From positions 2,864,784 through 2,928,783 of the forward strand of contig OY762227.1 of the NCBI GenBank assembly GCA_963665485.1: a stretch of DNA of 64,000 bases, given 5' to 3'. Each line of letters starts with the position of its first letter. Position 1 is the stretch's first letter. The notes under the pieces are model-generated. The model ran no database searches. It was not told the origin of the DNA and saw only the letters and a list, made by a program, of their open reading frames with translations. The position numbers were made by a program, and so were the translations under genes. This DNA is from Bacteroidales bacterium (GTDB lineage: Bacteria > Bacteroidota > Bacteroidia > Bacteroidales > UBA4417). Positions 10,186 to 16,648 of the stretch are shown one piece after another.

Positions 10186-11493
10186 TTAGTCACATTCCTC
10201 GATCACAGTCTTCTTGTTTTTAATTTTTTCATCACGGATCACCCGGAGTAATTCCCTTATTTTATTTCGTTTAATAGCAACATACGAAAAGAAATCCTTC
10301 ACTTCAATCAGCCCGATTTCTTCTTTCTTCAGGTTGCCTTTCTGCATAAGAAATCCTACGATATCTACTTTGTTCAGCTTGTCTTTCTTGCCTTTCCCAA
10401 TATATAAAGTTCCCCATAGGGGTTTTATTGGCAATATCCTGGTATCAGGCAATGTAATAGTATTCAGTTCCTCTTTTATAAAAGCCGGCACAGTTTCATC
10501 AGCACTCAAAATCAGGTACGAATCGCCTTCAGCATTCATTCGGGCCGTGCGTCCGTTGCGGTGAATATATACTTCTTCATTTGGCGGCAAATGATAATGT
10601 ATTACATGCTTTATTTCAGGGATATCCAATCCGCGCGAAGCCAGATCGGTACATACCAGGATGTTGCAGCTTCCATTCCTGAATTTCCCCAGCACACGCT
10701 CCCGGATATGCTGCTCCAGTCCACCATGAAAATATTCATTCACAACCAGGCTATCCGTTAACGAATCGCTCACCCTTTGTGCTGCTTCCCTGTGATTGCA
10801 AAACACCAGGGTCTGTTCTCCGCCAAGGTGACACAACAATTGGAACAGGGTAGATAATTTATCTTTATGGTCTGATCGTACTATATTGCACCGAATTCCT
10901 TGTAGCGCCTGGCTTTCGTTTAAATAGTCAATCATATACGGATCAGTAATACCAGTGAATGCAGGGACTTCAAGCGCTTTTGTAGCAGAAGTCAGTATTC
11001 GTTTTTTAATGCCACTGAGGGTGTCAATAATTGCTGACATTTCGGACTGGAAGCCCAGTTCAAGTGATTTGTCGAATTCGTCAAGAATAAGTGTGTGAAT
11101 TCCTTCAGTATTAAAGTTATTACGTGAGATATGGTCTAAAAGACGTCCCGGAGTTCCTACAAGTATAGCTGGTGGCTCCAATAAATTATTCTTCTCAACG
11201 CTCATTTTATGCCCGCCATAGCAACAACTCACTTTAAGCCCGGTATTCATCGATTTAAAAACATCTTCGATCTGTAGCGCTAATTCACGCGATGGTGTAA
11301 TAACCATAGCCTGAACTTTGTTGTTGTCCTTTTCGAGGTTGGTTAAAACGGGTAAAAGAAAGGCAAGCGTTTTTCCTGAACCTGTAGGTGAAAGTAAAAT
11401 TATGTTTTTATGCTTGCTGATGGCCTCAACCGAAGCTAGCTGCATAGTGTTTAGCGCTTCAATATTCAGCTTTTGCAGTATTTTCTTAATCAA
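10186..11493 (-). CDS. dbpA: DEAD-box RNA helicase with DbpA RNA-binding domain
   Basis: SPTGSGKT, PSRELA, TPGR, DEFD, SAT, SRGLD, HRNGRTAR; C-terminal GKKDKL...DIVG domain. Confidence 0.85.
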   Translation of the reverse strand: MIKKILQKLNIEALNTMQLASVEAISKHKNIILLSPTGSGKTLAFLLPVLTNLEKDNNKVQAMVITPSRELALQIEDVFKSMNTGLKVSCCYGGHKMSVEKNNLLEPPAILVGTPGRLLDHISRNNFNTEGIHTLILDEFDKSLELGFQSEMSAIIDTLSGIKKRILTSATKALEVPAFTGITDPYMIDYLNESQALQGIRCNIVRSDHKDKLSTLFQLLCHLGGEQTLVFCNHREAAQRVSDSLTDSLVVNEYFHGGLEQHIRERVLGKFRNGSCNILVCTDLASRGLDIPEIKHVIHYHLPPNEEVYIHRNGRTARMNAEGDSYLILSADETVPAFIKEELNTITLPDTRILPIKPLWGTLYIGKGKKDKLNKVDIVGFLMQKGNLKKEEIGLIEVKDFFSYVAIKRNKIRELLRVIRDEKIKNKKTVIEECD

Positions 11494-11678: not shown

Positions 11679-11706
11679 AAAAAAGAGCTGCCTTACAGCA
11701 GCTCTT
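11679..11706 (-). terminator. Intrinsic terminator
   Basis: AAGAGCTGC/GCAGCTCTT stem with U-tract on the minus strand, downstream of the 11751 ORF. Confidence 0.75.
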
Positions 11707-11750: not shown

Positions 11751-13295
11751 CTACAGCAAATTTAATTGGTTATCAGCAGTAGTTTTAGGTTTCCTGCCCC
11801 TGGTTTTCTTATCGCTTTGAATCTGAATGTTTTTATACTGTTTGTATTTCAATCCGATGTAGCCTAGCTTAAAGAATATGTAGGTATTTGTTTTATCAAG
11901 TTTCAGGTTCGAAAGGATGTTCTTATCGGTAGTTCTTCTGAACTTATTTACGTACGAAGCTATTTCTGAAATATGTTTTGGCTCAGCTGTTGATGAAAGG
12001 AATTCTTTAACCAGTTCTTTGATAGTACCTGTTTTTACCATATCCCATTCCTTGAGTGCATAGGTACTGGTTTTACCGATTGCCGCAACCTCATCAATAC
12101 TCAAAATAGATGACCGTAAGGATTCAATATTTGGAGGAATACGCTTTGAGCGGGTTTTCAGCTCTTTACATATTTCGGTAAGTTTCATAGGGCGTCCTAC
12201 GGATTGAAGAATACTTATGATATGTTCGGAAAGTTTTACAAGCGAATTACGTCTGAAAACAATATTGGTCTTATCATATCCGAGACCAAATTCTTCTGTA
12301 GCCATACGTTTACAAATTTGTTTAAGCCTGTCGTTTACAATTTGTCCAGGCAAAACAAAATGGTTAAGATAACCAAGTAAGTCAACAGGCACATCATTGA
12401 CCTTACGGACTGAATTGCGTTCTTCAATGTCATTTATAAATGCCCTGAAGTCGAATACTTCTTTATATTTTCGGCTTACCAGGTAATAATGTTGATAATT
12501 GCTTTCGATGCTTTGGGTGCTGATGAAATAGCGTTGGAAAATTCCTGAAAACACAAGAGAATAAAGTTTGCCTGTATAGGTCAGATTTTCCTTTTTGTTT
12601 ATCTGATCTACCAGTTCCTGGTTTATTACAATAATTTCTTTTTTAAGGTCCAAACCGTAATCAAAGTGCTTGTCAATATTTACAAAACGATGTGAAATCT
12701 TTGTAATTGCATTAAACACCTTATCCGGAACTTTTTGGGAGATTTGACGTACTCTTTCGCGGGTAATGCTGTAGTGGTCTCCTATGGCTTGTAAGGTGCG
12801 TTTCTGTGACTTTTCAACAAAGCCATAGTTGTTATTGAAGATATACTGCTCACGATCGTTTAGGATATATTTGATCATGGTTTGTACATAACTGAATAAA
12901 GGAAAATTCTTCGAAATAAATGCTGCTTTGTATGATTCAGTTACTTCGGAAGGAACTTTAAAGTTTACATAACAGAAAAGTTTAAAATCCTCAAATCCCA
13001 GTAATGGTTCGTTCATTCTCAAATCTTCAAGTGTAAGTCCTGAAATGCTCAGGTACTTCTTTGACAGAGTTATTAATTCAATGTCAGTTTTAAGGCCACA
13101 ATTCCTTATATCGCGGAAAGTATTCCGTTCAAGGAAATAATAGAGGATTTTGAACAATGTATCAAGAGAGCCTTCAACGCATACATTTTTTGTTCTTTCT
13201 GAAAGGTTTTCCATCCTTTTCAGTTCCTCTATATGATAATTTATAAGTTTTGATAATGGGGCCACGATATTTTTGATTTTATGTTTAACATACAA
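11751..13295 (-). CDS. Hypothetical multi-HTH protein (alphaCTD-like HhH + sigma70 region-4 HTH + two winged helices)
   Basis: 514-aa ORF with LSERTKNVC...IRNCGLKTDIEL, RTLQAIGDHYSITRERVRQI and GRPMKLTEI...TYALKEW; start may be GTG at 13265. Confidence 0.75.
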   Translation of the reverse strand: MYVKHKIKNIVAPLSKLINYHIEELKRMENLSERTKNVCVEGSLDTLFKILYYFLERNTFRDIRNCGLKTDIELITLSKKYLSISGLTLEDLRMNEPLLGFEDFKLFCYVNFKVPSEVTESYKAAFISKNFPLFSYVQTMIKYILNDREQYIFNNNYGFVEKSQKRTLQAIGDHYSITRERVRQISQKVPDKVFNAITKISHRFVNIDKHFDYGLDLKKEIIVINQELVDQINKKENLTYTGKLYSLVFSGIFQRYFISTQSIESNYQHYYLVSRKYKEVFDFRAFINDIEERNSVRKVNDVPVDLLGYLNHFVLPGQIVNDRLKQICKRMATEEFGLGYDKTNIVFRRNSLVKLSEHIISILQSVGRPMKLTEICKELKTRSKRIPPNIESLRSSILSIDEVAAIGKTSTYALKEWDMVKTGTIKELVKEFLSSTAEPKHISEIASYVNKFRRTTDKNILSNLKLDKTNTYIFFKLGYIGLKYKQYKNIQIQSDKKTRGRKPKTTADNQLNLL

Positions 13296-13340: not shown

Positions 13341-14126
13341 TCAAAAATTATTTTTATAAAGCTGTTTGCAAATTTCGTAACATATGATTCCATTGGCTAT
13401 GGAAGCATTTAACGATTCGGCATGATTTTCGGTTCCTGAAACTGAAAAGTGGGGGATATGAATTGGTTCGTTTATGAATGGTGCCAGGCTTCCTGATATT
13501 CCATGCGATTCGCTGCCAATCAGCACTATCCCTGGACGTGTAAATACTTTCTGCGTAATGTCGGGGCCTTCAAGCAAGGCTCCGAATACTGGAATTTCAG
13601 CCGGCAGACTTTTAAAGAAATCAGGAAGATTAAGGTAATAAACCTCAACCCTGCTGAATGATCCCATCGTTGCCTGCACAACTTTTGGATTATACATATC
13701 AACGGAGTCGGTTGAACAAATAATTTTACTGATTCCGAACCAATCGGCTGTGCGGATCATGGTTCCCATGTTTCCTGGATCACGGATACCATCCAGGGCA
13801 AGCGTTATTCCTGTAAAATCATTTGGGGCAGGTAAAATACTCTCAGGTATTTCAGCTAAAGCCAATACCTGGTTTGGATTAATAAGGTCAGTAATTTTAT
13901 TGAGTTCAATTTCGGTGATTTCCTGATGATCAAGGTTCTTCCTTTTCAAAAGGGAGATATTTTTATCAATCCAATCCGGCAAAGCATATATTTTTAAAGT
14001 TTGTAAGGAGCTTCTGAGCAGTTCATCAACACCTTTTTCTCCTTCAACGATAAACGCTTTGTGTAACTGTCTGAATTTCTTTATCTTCAGAGAGTTGATA
14101 TATTTAATCTGGTTGTGTGAAATCAT
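13341..14126 (-). CDS. TrmH/SpoU-family RNA methyltransferase
   Basis: DPGNMGTMIRTADWFG, IGSESHG, ESLNAS. Confidence 0.92.
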   Translation of the reverse strand: MISHNQIKYINSLKIKKFRQLHKAFIVEGEKGVDELLRSSLQTLKIYALPDWIDKNISLLKRKNLDHQEITEIELNKITDLINPNQVLALAEIPESILPAPNDFTGITLALDGIRDPGNMGTMIRTADWFGISKIICSTDSVDMYNPKVVQATMGSFSRVEVYYLNLPDFFKSLPAEIPVFGALLEGPDITQKVFTRPGIVLIGSESHGISGSLAPFINEPIHIPHFSVSGTENHAESLNASIANGIICYEICKQLYKNNF

Positions 14127-14208: not shown

Positions 14209-14658
14209 TTATTCAGCTATAACCTCGAAATTGACGTTTACAAGCAAATCCTTGTGAAGACGGATACTTGCGGTATAGCTCCCTGTTTCCTTGATTGATT
14301 CGCCATCAACATGGATTTTCTTGCGGTCGATATCAATTTTGAATTGATCGCGAAGTGCATCCGCTATTTGTATAGCATTAACTGATCCGTAAATTTTTCC
14401 GGTTTCAGCAGCTTTAGCTCCGATTTTCACTGTAATGTTCTCAAGTGACTGAGCAACCAATTCAGCTTCTTTCTTTGTTTTCTGAGCTTTGAATGATTTC
14501 TGACGTAGGTCTTCCGCATTAATCTTCCTGTTCGGCACGGTTGCCATTACAGCGTGTCCCTGGGGAATAAGAAAATTGCGGGCAAAGCCGTCTTTAACAT
14601 TTACCACATCGTGTGCGTAACCTAAGTTGGTTACATCCTTTTTGAGTATAATTTCCAT
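14209..14658 (-). CDS. rplI: 50S ribosomal protein bL9
   Basis: VKDGFARNFLIPQG; operon context. Confidence 0.98.
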   Translation of the reverse strand: MEIILKKDVTNLGYAHDVVNVKDGFARNFLIPQGHAVMATVPNRKINAEDLRQKSFKAQKTKKEAELVAQSLENITVKIGAKAAETGKIYGSVNAIQIADALRDQFKIDIDRKKIHVDGESIKETGSYTASIRLHKDLLVNVNFEVIAE

Positions 14659-14967: not shown

Positions 14968-15327
14968 TTAAGCCTGTGCTTTTTCTGCAGTTTTTTCTGC
15001 TTTTTTAGCACGACGTTTTGCGCTGTAAGCAACAGCGTGTTTATCGCAAACAACTGTGAGAAAGCGAAGTATCCGCTCGTCACGTTTCAGGGCGATTTCG
15101 AAATCGTTGATCAGTTTACCTTCAGCAAGAAATTCGAACTGGTGATAAAACCCGGTCGATTTTTTCTGAATTGGGTAAGCTAACTTACGTAAACCCCAAT
15201 TGTCGTCGTTAATAATTGTAGCCCCTTTGTCGTTAAGGAACTTCTGGAACTTGCTTACCGTTTCCTTCATCTGTTCATCAGATAAAACGGGAGTCATAAT
15301 GAAAACGGCTTCGTACTGTCTAATCAT
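14968..15327 (-). CDS. rpsF: 30S ribosomal protein bS6
   Basis: [16 protein letters not shown]; start at ATG 15327. Confidence 0.97.
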
Positions 15328-15377
15328 TTGTTTTACTTTAATTTGTGTTTGTACTTTGTGATTTCTACAAATGGAGC

Positions 15378-15408
15378 GCAAAAGTACAAATTCTTTTTAA
15401 GTTACAAA
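15378..15408 (-). promoter_or_regulatory. Housekeeping promoter of the rpsF operon (also copy 1 of a 31-bp direct repeat)
   Basis: TTTG-N18-TACTTTTG matches the Bacteroidota -33/-7 consensus. Confidence 0.75.
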
Positions 15409-15475: not shown

Positions 15476-16648
15476 TTAACGCATTCTGTAACCAAGAATA
15501 AGTGAAAATCTCTGATACACTGTGTCCCAATAAACATATTTGTACAATAATTGTCTGTTAGAATAATATCTCATTTCGGTACTTAATTTTTTGTATCCTA
15601 TTCCACCTCCCAATGCAAGGCAATTGCCGCTTGCAATTTCAAGATCCGATATTGTTGAATTAAAATCTATGCTTATGGATGTTATGAACAAAGCATTTAG
15701 GAAAACATTTAAATTTTCGTTTAAGTAGAATCTGTGCTGTAGTCCTATTGGGAATTCAATAGATTGATATTTGATTTTTATTGTTTCCGAACCTCTCTGC
15801 CCGCTGGAATTAAAATACTGATAGCTGGGATCAAACAGGATTCCCCATTTATTTTTGTTAAAGGGAAGTAAATATTCGGCTTGAACTCCTATTCTAAAAT
15901 TTAGTTGATTACCAAAATCTGTGTACAAATTAGGAATATCACCGTTAGAAACCGTTACCCCTGAATAATTTAAACCAGGTGTAATCCTTACCTGTAAGAG
16001 ATTTTGTTTCTTTTTTTCGGTATAGGCCTCTGTATGAGAGTCTTCCACTCCATTATATTTTTTAAAGTATCGTTCAAGTTCAGTTCGGGAATAACGCAAG
16101 TTTTCAACCGAATTCAGCCCCGCATCAGCACATCTTACATTATTCCAGAGTTGCTCGCGAAATTTAAAATTTTCGGCAGTCTGATCGTTTTCAACATAGT
16201 ATTGCTTGTAAATCAATTGATTAATAGTTGAATCTGAAACTGAATAGAAAAAGCGTATTAGTTTATCTTTTTCATAATAATAAAGTTTAGCTTTTCCTTC
16301 AACTAATACTTTTAAAAATATACGCTCCTGCGACCATTCCGGATCGCGCTCTTTTGAGAGGCTAATGAGATCAGCCGGAGAAACATCAATTTTCACATCT
16401 GCCCGTAAATATCTGGAAAACCCGGTAATGCCAAACTCTTTTATCGTAGTAAGTGTACCTGTTTTTTCTTCAACATTCTCTGTCAATTTAAATTTAAATT
16501 CCGTTGGATTGTTTTTCCAATCGTTGTTTTTGATCAGGCATTCAACCCGCTGGTTTTCGTTATTAATAAAATAGCCTTTTTCAAAATTGATTTGACCGAT
16601 AGCGCTTACGCTAATGAGGAGAATTAAAGCAATAAGTTTGGTTTTCAT
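15476..16648 (-). CDS. Hypothetical outer-membrane protein (N-terminal domain plus C-terminal beta-barrel)
   Basis: Signal peptide; alternating beta-strand pattern; terminal FSLILGYRMR. Confidence 0.7.
   Translation of the reverse strand: MKTKLIALILLISVSAIGQINFEKGYFINNENQRVECLIKNNDWKNNPTEFKFKLTENVEEKTGTLTTIKEFGITGFSRYLRADVKIDVSPADLISLSKERDPEWSQERIFLKVLVEGKAKLYYYEKDKLIRFFYSVSDSTINQLIYKQYYVENDQTAENFKFREQLWNNVRCADAGLNSVENLRYSRTELERYFKKYNGVEDSHTEAYTEKKKQNLLQVRITPGLNYSGVTVSNGDIPNLYTDFGNQLNFRIGVQAEYLLPFNKNKWGILFDPSYQYFNSSGQRGSETIKIKYQSIEFPIGLQHRFYLNENLNVFLNALFITSISIDFNSTISDLEIASGNCLALGGGIGYKKLSTEMRYYSNRQLLYKYVYWDTVYQRFSLILGYRMR

Follow-up and report, generated by a model that had tools for sequence, protein, structure and literature searches.

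The window analysed here is a stretch of 64,000 nucleotides from a Bacteroidales bacterium (contig OY762227.1 of assembly GCA_963665485.1, forward-strand positions 2,864,784 to 2,928,783), and the gene under study lies on its minus strand at 11751-13265. Judged from sequence and modelled structure, its product may be a multi-headed, non-enzymatic DNA-binding protein of a family that joins, in one chain, a module resembling the RNA polymerase (RNAP) alpha subunit's C-terminal domain (alpha-CTD), region 4 of sigma-70 factors (sigma-4) and HARE-type winged helices. Our preferred reading, which is offered tentatively, is that the protein binds promoter-like DNA, is tethered to the beta sliding clamp (DnaN) and acts on newly replicated DNA. 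The parts of the gene are given below, and residues here and in the text are numbered on the 504-amino-acid form.

11751-13265, minus strand: coding sequence, 504 amino acids, start GTG 13265, stop TAG 11751-11753
13020-13253, minus strand: alpha-CTD-like helix-hairpin-helix module, residues 5-82 (module hidden Markov model (HMM) against the own proteome; structure comparison)
12894-13019, minus strand: helical linker, residues 83-124 (secondary structure in the AlphaFold 2 (AF2) model, predicted local distance difference test (pLDDT) mostly >76; no family match)
12696-12893, minus strand: predicted sigma-70 region 4 helix-turn-helix, residues ~125-190, Pfam match 135-178 (Pfam, NCBIfam and PDB profile)
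12240-12695, minus strand: middle domain, residues 191-342 (AF2 fragment model; weak winged-helix-like matches in the second half)
12033-12239, minus strand: winged helix 3 (WH3), HARE-type, residues 343-411 (structure comparison and HMM mapping)
11838-12032, minus strand: winged helix 4 (WH4), paralogous HARE-type repeat, residues 412-476 (structure comparison and HMM cross-matches)
11769-11837, minus strand: disordered basic linker, residues 477-499, with an AT-hook-like RGRKPK at 11784-11801 (pLDDT; isoelectric point (pI) 10.3)
11754-11768, minus strand: C-terminal pentapeptide QLNLL, resembling a beta-clamp-binding motif (conservation; own-genome count)

The mechanical open reading frame (ORF), 11751..13295 on the minus strand, has 514 amino acids and opens at TTG 13295. 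The GTG at 13265 is the likely start, because the N-terminus is conserved and relatives start there. In an alignment of 20 homologues, most begin where Val11 of the 514-residue ORF aligns, the codon of which is GTG 13265, and orthologous ORFs of 505 amino acids with GTG starts are present at the loci of two close relatives (L003 and L004). Met28 is excluded as the start by the sequence LINYHIEEL, which is conserved upstream of it and contains the invariant N19, H21 and L25 in the same alignment (these positions being counted on the 514-residue ORF). The AF2 model of the whole protein has a pLDDT of 86.9 and a predicted template modelling score (pTM) of 0.72. The protein is basic (pI 9.5), as are sigma-4, WH3, WH4 and the tail individually (pI 9.5-10.3). 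Foldseek with the whole model returned tandem-winged-helix arrays (SelB, expectation value (E) 4.9e-4) and sigma-4 chimeras.

Homologues of the protein are numerous. A word-indexed search scored 8000 candidates, of which 274 proteins reached E<=1e-3. Those listed, 120 in number, range from 93% to 43% identity, are mostly 488-505 amino acids long, come from Bacteroidales/Bacteroidota metagenome bins and carry as their best name 'sigma factor-like helix-turn-helix DNA-binding protein'. A phmmer search of 1.84 billion representatives gave 1738 clusters at E<=1e-3, of which 820 reach <=1e-10 and 228 reach <=1e-30; a large number have members of 600-950 amino acids that align over query residues ~16-492. 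An earlier note on this DNA, made from the letters alone, had called the protein an orphan, which these 274 close homologues and 1738 representative clusters contradict. All the strings that it quoted are found in the translation of the 514-residue ORF, and the four domains that it named (alphaCTD, sigma4 and two C-terminal winged helices of HARE/delta type) were recovered by the sequence and structure comparisons described below; the middle domain and the QLxLL tail were missing from its inventory, and the tail alters which mechanism is the likeliest. Its statement that sigma region 2 and any catalytic domain are lacking agrees with a Pfam scan at E<=10, in which four families only were matched, none of them Sigma70_r2, Sigma70_r3 or an enzyme. 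The reading as a broken or truncated sigma factor was rejected, since the full-length conservation in hundreds of relatives and the confident multi-domain model speak against it.

The sigma-4 module is matched directly by Pfam PF04545 (Sigma70_r4) over residues 135-178 with 27.3 bits (cut-off 24.1, E 2.5e-6) and by NCBIfam RpoD_Cterm at E 2.1e-9, and a PDB search with a profile of 50 sequences gave region 4 of RpoD chains at E 6e-9. All NCBIfam sigma matches are confined to region-4 positions of the protein. BLASTP against the two sigA-like factors of the own genome gave E 2e-5, and the recognition helix TRERVRQI is identical in all three proteins. Among 50 relatives, down to 26% identity, E170, R171, R173 and Q174 are conserved to at least 90%, with a mean column identity of 34%. 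The module thus shares profile matches and the recognition helix with region 4 of group-1 sigma-70 factors (RpoD/SigA) but diverges from it in the helix after the recognition helix. Unlike group-1 factors, the protein is without regions 1.2-3, and therefore it cannot open promoters or bind core in the manner of a sigma factor; with region 2, the seat of core binding and -10 recognition, missing, it falls outside the sigma-70 family. The two sigA-like factors of the own genome (L115 and L116; 287 and 288 amino acids) are short, primary-like sigma factors that match RpoD_Cterm with ~250-258 bits, below the cut-off of 354.

An HMM of the N-terminal module (residues 5-82, 46 relatives) was compared with the 3937 ORFs of the own genome. 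The top non-self match is the C-terminal domain carried by the organism's own RpoA (E 1e-5, 23.0 bits), followed by a next match at E 0.021. In the alignment the positions LS-R--N and RN-G-K(S/T)--EL correspond to LSVRALN...RNFGKKSLTEL of RpoA, and among the relatives the shared R, N, G, K, S/T and E positions either never vary or are conserved to 90% or more. We take the aligned positions to be those of R265, N268, G296, K298 and S299 of E. coli alpha, the DNA-binding '265 determinant' for UP elements. The folds also agree: residues 5-79 of the AF2 model match the B. subtilis alpha-CTD (1z3e_B) with Z 8.3 and a root-mean-square deviation of 2.0 A over 64 aligned of 67 residues at 22% identity, and E. 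coli RpoA (4mex_A) with Z 7.8. The likeness to the RpoA CTD is hence one of fold and profile, with the R/N and G-K-S/T-x-x-E positions aligned. The differences are that the module occurs here without the alpha N-terminal domain, lies below Pfam detection on its own and is preceded by the conserved N-terminal extension LINYHIEEL.

Residues 343-411 and 412-476 both match winged-helix proteins in structure comparisons (Z 8-9.7). For WH3 the matches are 2od5_A (Z 9.7), 8x6g_E (Z 8.3) and 7f75_L (Z 8.1), the last two being chains of 84 and 92 residues from Gram-positive RNAP complexes. We take both of these chains to be delta; when the PDB was searched by sequence with a relative from Patescibacteria, with a view to the delta identity of such small chains, only sigma-4 matches resulted. 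The WH3 HMM aligns with residues 220-280 of L013, a relative from Patescibacteria, exactly the segment that Pfam calls HARE-HTH with 54.5 bits. WH4 resembles the winged helices of MarR, Fur and Z-alpha (Z 8-9). Since the WH3 and WH4 HMMs match each other's positions in Patescibacteria relatives, the two are regarded as paralogous repeats. TIGR04567 (RNAP delta) matches WH4 weakly, at E 0.021 and 15 bits against a cut-off of 42, and a Patescibacteria relative at E 6.2e-6. The middle domain (186-342), modelled alone, has a pLDDT of 95.4 and a pTM of 0.88. Its fragment residues 85-157 reach a best Z of 6.5, all to winged-helix parts, and Foldseek gave no match for the domain at E<=0.001, the weak top rows being tandem-winged-helix proteins. 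The model thus points to no enzyme fold and, weakly, to a winged-helix-like second half, the first half (fragment residues 26-79) being barely tested.

Delta (RpoE) of Firmicutes is among the closest known proteins and shares the HARE-type winged helix. It has ~170 amino acids, with a single winged helix and a tail that is acidic (net charge -47), and its N-terminal domain binds RNAP (beta') and not DNA (PMC7749165). The present protein differs in having two HARE-type winged helices, a middle domain and a basic tail (7 K+R against 2 D+E), and the delta plan, in which one HARE winged helix at the N-terminus precedes a long disordered tail of acidic character, is absent from it. In one rival explanation, which we consider unlikely, the protein would be an RNAP-associated accessory factor (delta-like, a sigma competitor or a decoy) that modulates holoenzyme formation, promoter selectivity or RNAP recycling instead of binding DNA by itself. 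In such a factor sigma-4 would clasp the tip helix of the beta-flap, a HARE winged helix would lie on beta' like the delta N-terminal domain, and contacts with activators would be offered, or competed for, by the alpha-CTD-like module. All the recognisable modules are indeed derived from RNAP subunits, sigma region 4 touches the flap tip helix in the holoenzyme (PMC7892883), and the binding of the delta N-terminal domain to beta' (PMC7749165), the resemblance of WH3 to the small Gram-positive chains and the TIGR04567 match of the Patescibacteria relative all fit. The Patescibacteria form, sigma-4 plus HARE in 342-384 amino acids, also stands in a conserved housekeeping neighbourhood. However, conservation in sigma-4 is highest at the solvent-exposed recognition-helix residues with which sigma factors read DNA, the tail is basic in contrast to the acidic one of delta (PMC7749165), and without region 2 there is no core-binding module of the sigma type.

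The reading as a DNA-binding protein is based on these same features: conservation is strictest at the residues through which sigma-4 and alpha-CTD make contact with DNA, and the modules concerned are basic. The earlier note had offered three possible functions, a promoter-mimicking regulator, an RNAP decoy and a reader of modified DNA. Kept DNA-contact residues in both RNAP-derived modules favour a reader of promoter-like DNA. The second element of the preferred reading, the clamp tether, comes from the C-terminus. The last 22 residues (483-504) are disordered in the AF2 model (pLDDT <50) and basic (tail pI 10.3), and they contain the AT-hook-like RGRKPK; two relatives carry the canonical RGRP core in this element. 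Among the 120 listed homologues, 94 end exactly on Q[LM]x[LMF][LFIM], most commonly as QLSLL (29), QLKLL (28) or QLNLL (9), and the linkers before the pentapeptide vary in length and have no common sequence. The bacterial beta-clamp-binding consensus is given as QL[SD]LF in PMC12867686, and QLNLL is a pentapeptide of this kind within a disordered, accessible segment. In the own genome 5 of 3937 ORFs (a crude set of all ORFs of at least 100 amino acids) carry such an ending, against 0.48 expected from the overall rate of the motif (Poisson P 1.4e-4). ORFs for the own MutS, a DinB-family protein and DnaE have QLSFF, QIDLF and QLKLI near their C-termini. A role as docking peptide would best account for the conserved, disordered and terminal QLxLL, and among partners it is the clamp that has a matching known motif. 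The other four ORFs with this ending, which lie outside the window, are listed below and are possible further clamp clients.

L111:1-822, own genome, outside the window: protein of unknown function, 273 amino acids, NQLNLF
L112:1-348, own genome, outside the window: Cas2, QQLELF
L113:1-2949, own genome, outside the window: gyrase/topo IV subunit-A family, 981 amino acids, QMSLF
L114:1-891, own genome, outside the window: metallo-beta-lactamase (MBL)-fold protein, QMSLF

A co-fold of residues 465-504 with the own DnaN (L110:1501-2625) scored 0.51, which is weak support, and the best of three controls scored 0.00. The alignments held 25 rows for DnaN and 30 rows for the tail, the latter picked for carrying the tail motif. 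Of 157 solved complexes 116 attained the mark, as did 2 of 215 mismatched pairs; 18 of the 157 solved complexes and both passing mismatches scored <=0.60. Contact agreement between the runs was at least 43%, and the partner pLDDT at least 38. Two phage systems offer a likeness in working. T4 gp33 and gp55 with gp45 are clamp-tethered transcription factors (PMC7892883), and MuC of phage Mu with the host DnaN is a clamp-dependent one (PMC12867686). Both systems have a clamp-binding peptide on a flexible linker of a transcription-apparatus protein, and the likeness is one of proposed working only. The T4 and Mu factors are phage proteins with demonstrated clamp dependence, whereas the present gene is chromosomal and its clamp binding is predicted; no relationship to those factors in sequence or fold is claimed.

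As proposed, the protein would work in the following way. The alpha-CTD-like module would contact the A/T-rich minor groove, as the RNAP alpha-CTD does at UP elements, and the sigma-4 module would read a hexamer of the -35/-33 type, with the DNA contact widened by the winged helices and by the basic, AT-hook-like tail. The disordered C-terminal QLxLL would dock on the clamp, which would deliver the protein to newly replicated DNA or hold it there. Promoter-like sites on that DNA might then be occupied or marked, so that promoter occupancy would be coupled to replication, whether RNAP is kept off the promoters or has them passed on to it. DNA binding, sequence preference, clamp binding and the direction of any effect on transcription are inferred here, from an architecture, a conservation of DNA-contact residues and tail, and a single-copy housekeeping context that are shown. 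A further step, and a doubtful one, would be to see in the protein a cellular replication-to-transcription coupling factor of Bacteroidales that rides on, or is recruited by, beta clamps left on new DNA and is the housekeeping counterpart of the phage clamp-cofactor trick.

Several observations weigh against the clamp-tethered reader of promoter-like DNA. On the DNA side, Pfam RNA_pol_A_CTD matches neither the protein nor this locus of the own genome, and PF05066 (HARE-HTH) has no direct match on the protein or in the own genome, so that the HARE-HTH assignment is made by transitive homology. Because the direct Pfam models miss both, support for the alpha-CTD and HARE assignments comes entirely from profile, fold and transitive homology. 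Sigma-4 also binds the beta-flap (PMC7892883) and the delta N-terminal domain binds RNAP (PMC7749165); the modules could thus be protein-binding. No target DNA motif has been identified, and a full-text literature search gave no functional study of the family, though papers beyond the searched library could exist. On the clamp side, 26 of the 120 listed homologues are without the tail motif, including a clade at ~70% identity that ends right after RGRKPK and a clade that ends on W-x-[RK]-K. The syntenic orthologue at L101 (43% identity) also ends without the motif, and the tail is therefore dispensable. None of the other four ORFs that share this ending is a textbook client of the clamp. A co-fold pass at this score errs more often than not, save where the pairing was already probable, and clamp-peptide complexes have already been solved, so that the pass may reflect likeness only.

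Some of the points on the clamp side also speak for an ordinary, clamp-independent nucleoid-associated protein or global transcription factor that would bind promoter-like or A/T-rich DNA by its many HTH modules, and in which QLxLL would be a degradation tag or another contact. The evidence for DNA reading serves such a factor and the clamp-tethered reader equally, and both the missing tails (26 of 120 and L101) and the weak DnaN co-fold count in its favour. It is nonetheless held to be unlikely, to the same degree as the RNAP-associated factor, since the Q-L-x-L-L register is strictly kept at the extreme C-terminus despite unrelated linkers, the ending is enriched in the own genome (5 against 0.48 expected) and the co-fold controls remained at 0.00. 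The branch in this window offers a concrete handle that is cheap to test, a tail of five residues for which docking on DnaN is predicted. Should the tail bind the clamp, these proteins would tie replication to promoter occupancy in cells, a link so far shown only for phages T4 and Mu (PMC7892883, PMC12867686). If it does not, the branch is still an entry point to a family that copies the DNA contacts of sigma and alpha. With its 1738 representative clusters, this family is among the larger ones built of RNA-polymerase parts and without an experimental function, and its study could show promoter elements being read outside the holoenzyme.

Proteins of the plan (alpha-CTD)n - sigma-4 - HARE-HTH share the module order and near full-length homology with the present one. 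A sigma-4 module, an alpha-CTD-like unit N-terminal to it, C-terminal HARE-type winged helices and full-length homology were all found, and place the protein in this family. Pfam matches among 50 aligned relatives were Sigma70_r4 in 43, RNA_pol_A_CTD in 10 and HARE-HTH in 8; in a set of 16 mostly long relatives the figures were 11, 8 and 7, with HA repeats in 8 and HNH repeats in 1. The Bacteroidales branch differs from the rest in being short (~490-505 amino acids) with a single alpha-CTD-like unit, in lacking the HA or HNH repeats with which the long forms end, and in having the QLxLL end and a context of ribosomal-protein and SpoU genes instead of a defence island. In the wider family 11 of 150 representatives have an ending of the QLxLL type. 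The ESM Atlas gave only clusters of the same family, unnamed or named after domains. Bacterial proteins that join features of the RNAP alpha subunit and of sigma factors are said to have been noted computationally by Aravind and Iyer in Cell Cycle in 2012. The architecture would thus not be new, and what is specific to this branch is the clamp-binding-like tail and the ribosomal-operon/SpoU setting.

The relatives in Patescibacteria come from a set of 80 loci, of which the 21 with a match beyond sigma-4 were kept and the others dropped as probable ordinary sigma factors. Twenty of the 21 encode the sigma-4 plus HARE protein of 342-384 amino acids, which is split in L029. The neighbours include YceG/MltG in 12 and MnmA in 11 of the 21 loci; a large upstream gene is common to 11 of the 21 and is leuS in both that were scanned (L011 and L019). 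A conserved protein of 407-442 amino acids is encoded downstream in 17 of the 21 loci (L011:7194-8417, L019:7048-8376, L013:5715-6977); it has no Pfam or NCBIfam match and is a candidate partner. The neighbourhoods of the long paralogues of other Bacteroidota are of another kind. L104 and L105 adjoin genes for an SMC-like AAA_23 ATPase, a DndE-HerA-type ATPase, a superfamily 1 (SF1) helicase and an integrase, L108 adjoins an SRA-HNH nuclease, and L107 a PIN protein. Since the neighbourhoods differ in this way, the core of sigma-4 and winged helix is seen as housekeeping in Patescibacteria and as a passenger of defence islands elsewhere. In L104:9123-12798 and L105:202-7035 the HA-repeat paralogues (734 and 746 amino acids) are followed by a conserved pair, the AAA_23 SMC-like ATPase and a DndE-domain HerA/FtsK-type ATPase, with an SF1 helicase also in L105 and an integrase near the pair of L104. 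From its gene content this pair looks like a phosphorothioate-related defence cassette.

In the window itself the order on the minus strand is rpsF (14968-15381), rpsR, rplI (14209-14658), a terminator-like hairpin (14176-14155), a SpoU-family methyltransferase and then the gene, which is followed by its own terminator and a DbpA-type DEAD-box helicase (10186-11493). The two nearest features are as follows.

13341-14126, minus strand: upstream neighbour, putative SpoU-family RNA 2'-O-methyltransferase (Pfam SpoU_methylase, E 4e-27)
11683-11706, minus strand: predicted intrinsic terminator after the gene (10-pair stem, 5 GC pairs, T-run)

A terminator scan gave no terminator-like site in the gap of 45-75 nt between the SpoU methyltransferase and the gene. 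The linkage rpsF-rpsR-rplI-SpoU-gene persists at 88-90% identity (L003, L004 and L109), at 50% (L103) and at 43% in L101, which belongs to another family of the order; it is absent in L102 (30% identity). The gene is single-copy in its own genome of 5.47 Mb, assembled as one contig, and the GC content of the locus is not atypical. Of 24 other genomes of the genus 22 have it, as do 3 of the 16 other families within the order, and in a phylum-wide sample 4 of 300 other genomes had a match at E<=1e-10, all four of them long forms. The nearest public loci are metagenome-assembled genomes labelled Bacteroidales or Lentimicrobiaceae. The earlier note had placed the gene, with a terminator of its own (found at 11706-11683), in the core chromosome of a member of the Bacteroidales, and the retained ribosomal-operon synteny and the labels of the closest loci bear this out. 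Among the checks that it had suggested were structure comparisons by domain, in which the AF2 model matched the alpha-CTD and winged-helix folds, and synteny, for which the linkage held across the order down to 43% identity and was lost at 30%. This setting makes it highly improbable that the present protein is a reader of modified or foreign DNA for a defence or mobile-element system, as the defence-type settings of L104, L105, L107 and L108 and the proposal in PMC10853773 that HARE-HTH proteins discriminate modified DNA might suggest, since this copy has no effector, methylase or ATPase as a neighbour between the rpsF-rpsR-rplI-SpoU genes before it and the DbpA helicase after it, is single-copy and near-universal in the genus (22 of 24) with a GC content that is not atypical, and is matched in PADLOC only by MzaA at sigma-4 level (E 4e-4).

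The MzaA match covers the sigma-4 segment 134-182 and reaches 27.4 bits against a cut-off of 800 for NF041931, and in PHROGs there were likewise matches at sigma-4 level only. A scan for sigma-70-type promoters gave 14 sites with 18.6 expected, and a -33/-7 pattern of Bacteroidetes occurs at 16 sites in the window with 17.2 expected. Because these counts do not exceed expectation, neither TAAATTTG (13300-13293) nor the match at 13372-13342 counts as evidence of a promoter. Three RNA-library runs yielded only contigs of 85-277 nt within the gene body (11863-13256), with no cover over the methylase gene; one run is probably DNA, the others may hold DNA carry-over, and the missing cover over the methylase gene shows nothing.

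Two further observations concern the neighbouring DNA. In L003:7894-11607 and L004:7738-11598 three genes on the opposite strand, for a radical SAM protein, an unknown protein of ~550 amino acids and a DUF3575-like protein, lie between the gene and the DbpA helicase, and therefore the downstream linkage is not fixed. Between rpsF and the genes upstream lies an ORF of 390 amino acids (15476-16648, minus strand) without a Pfam match, the product of which has 48-60% identity among close relatives, against 74-92% for its neighbours.

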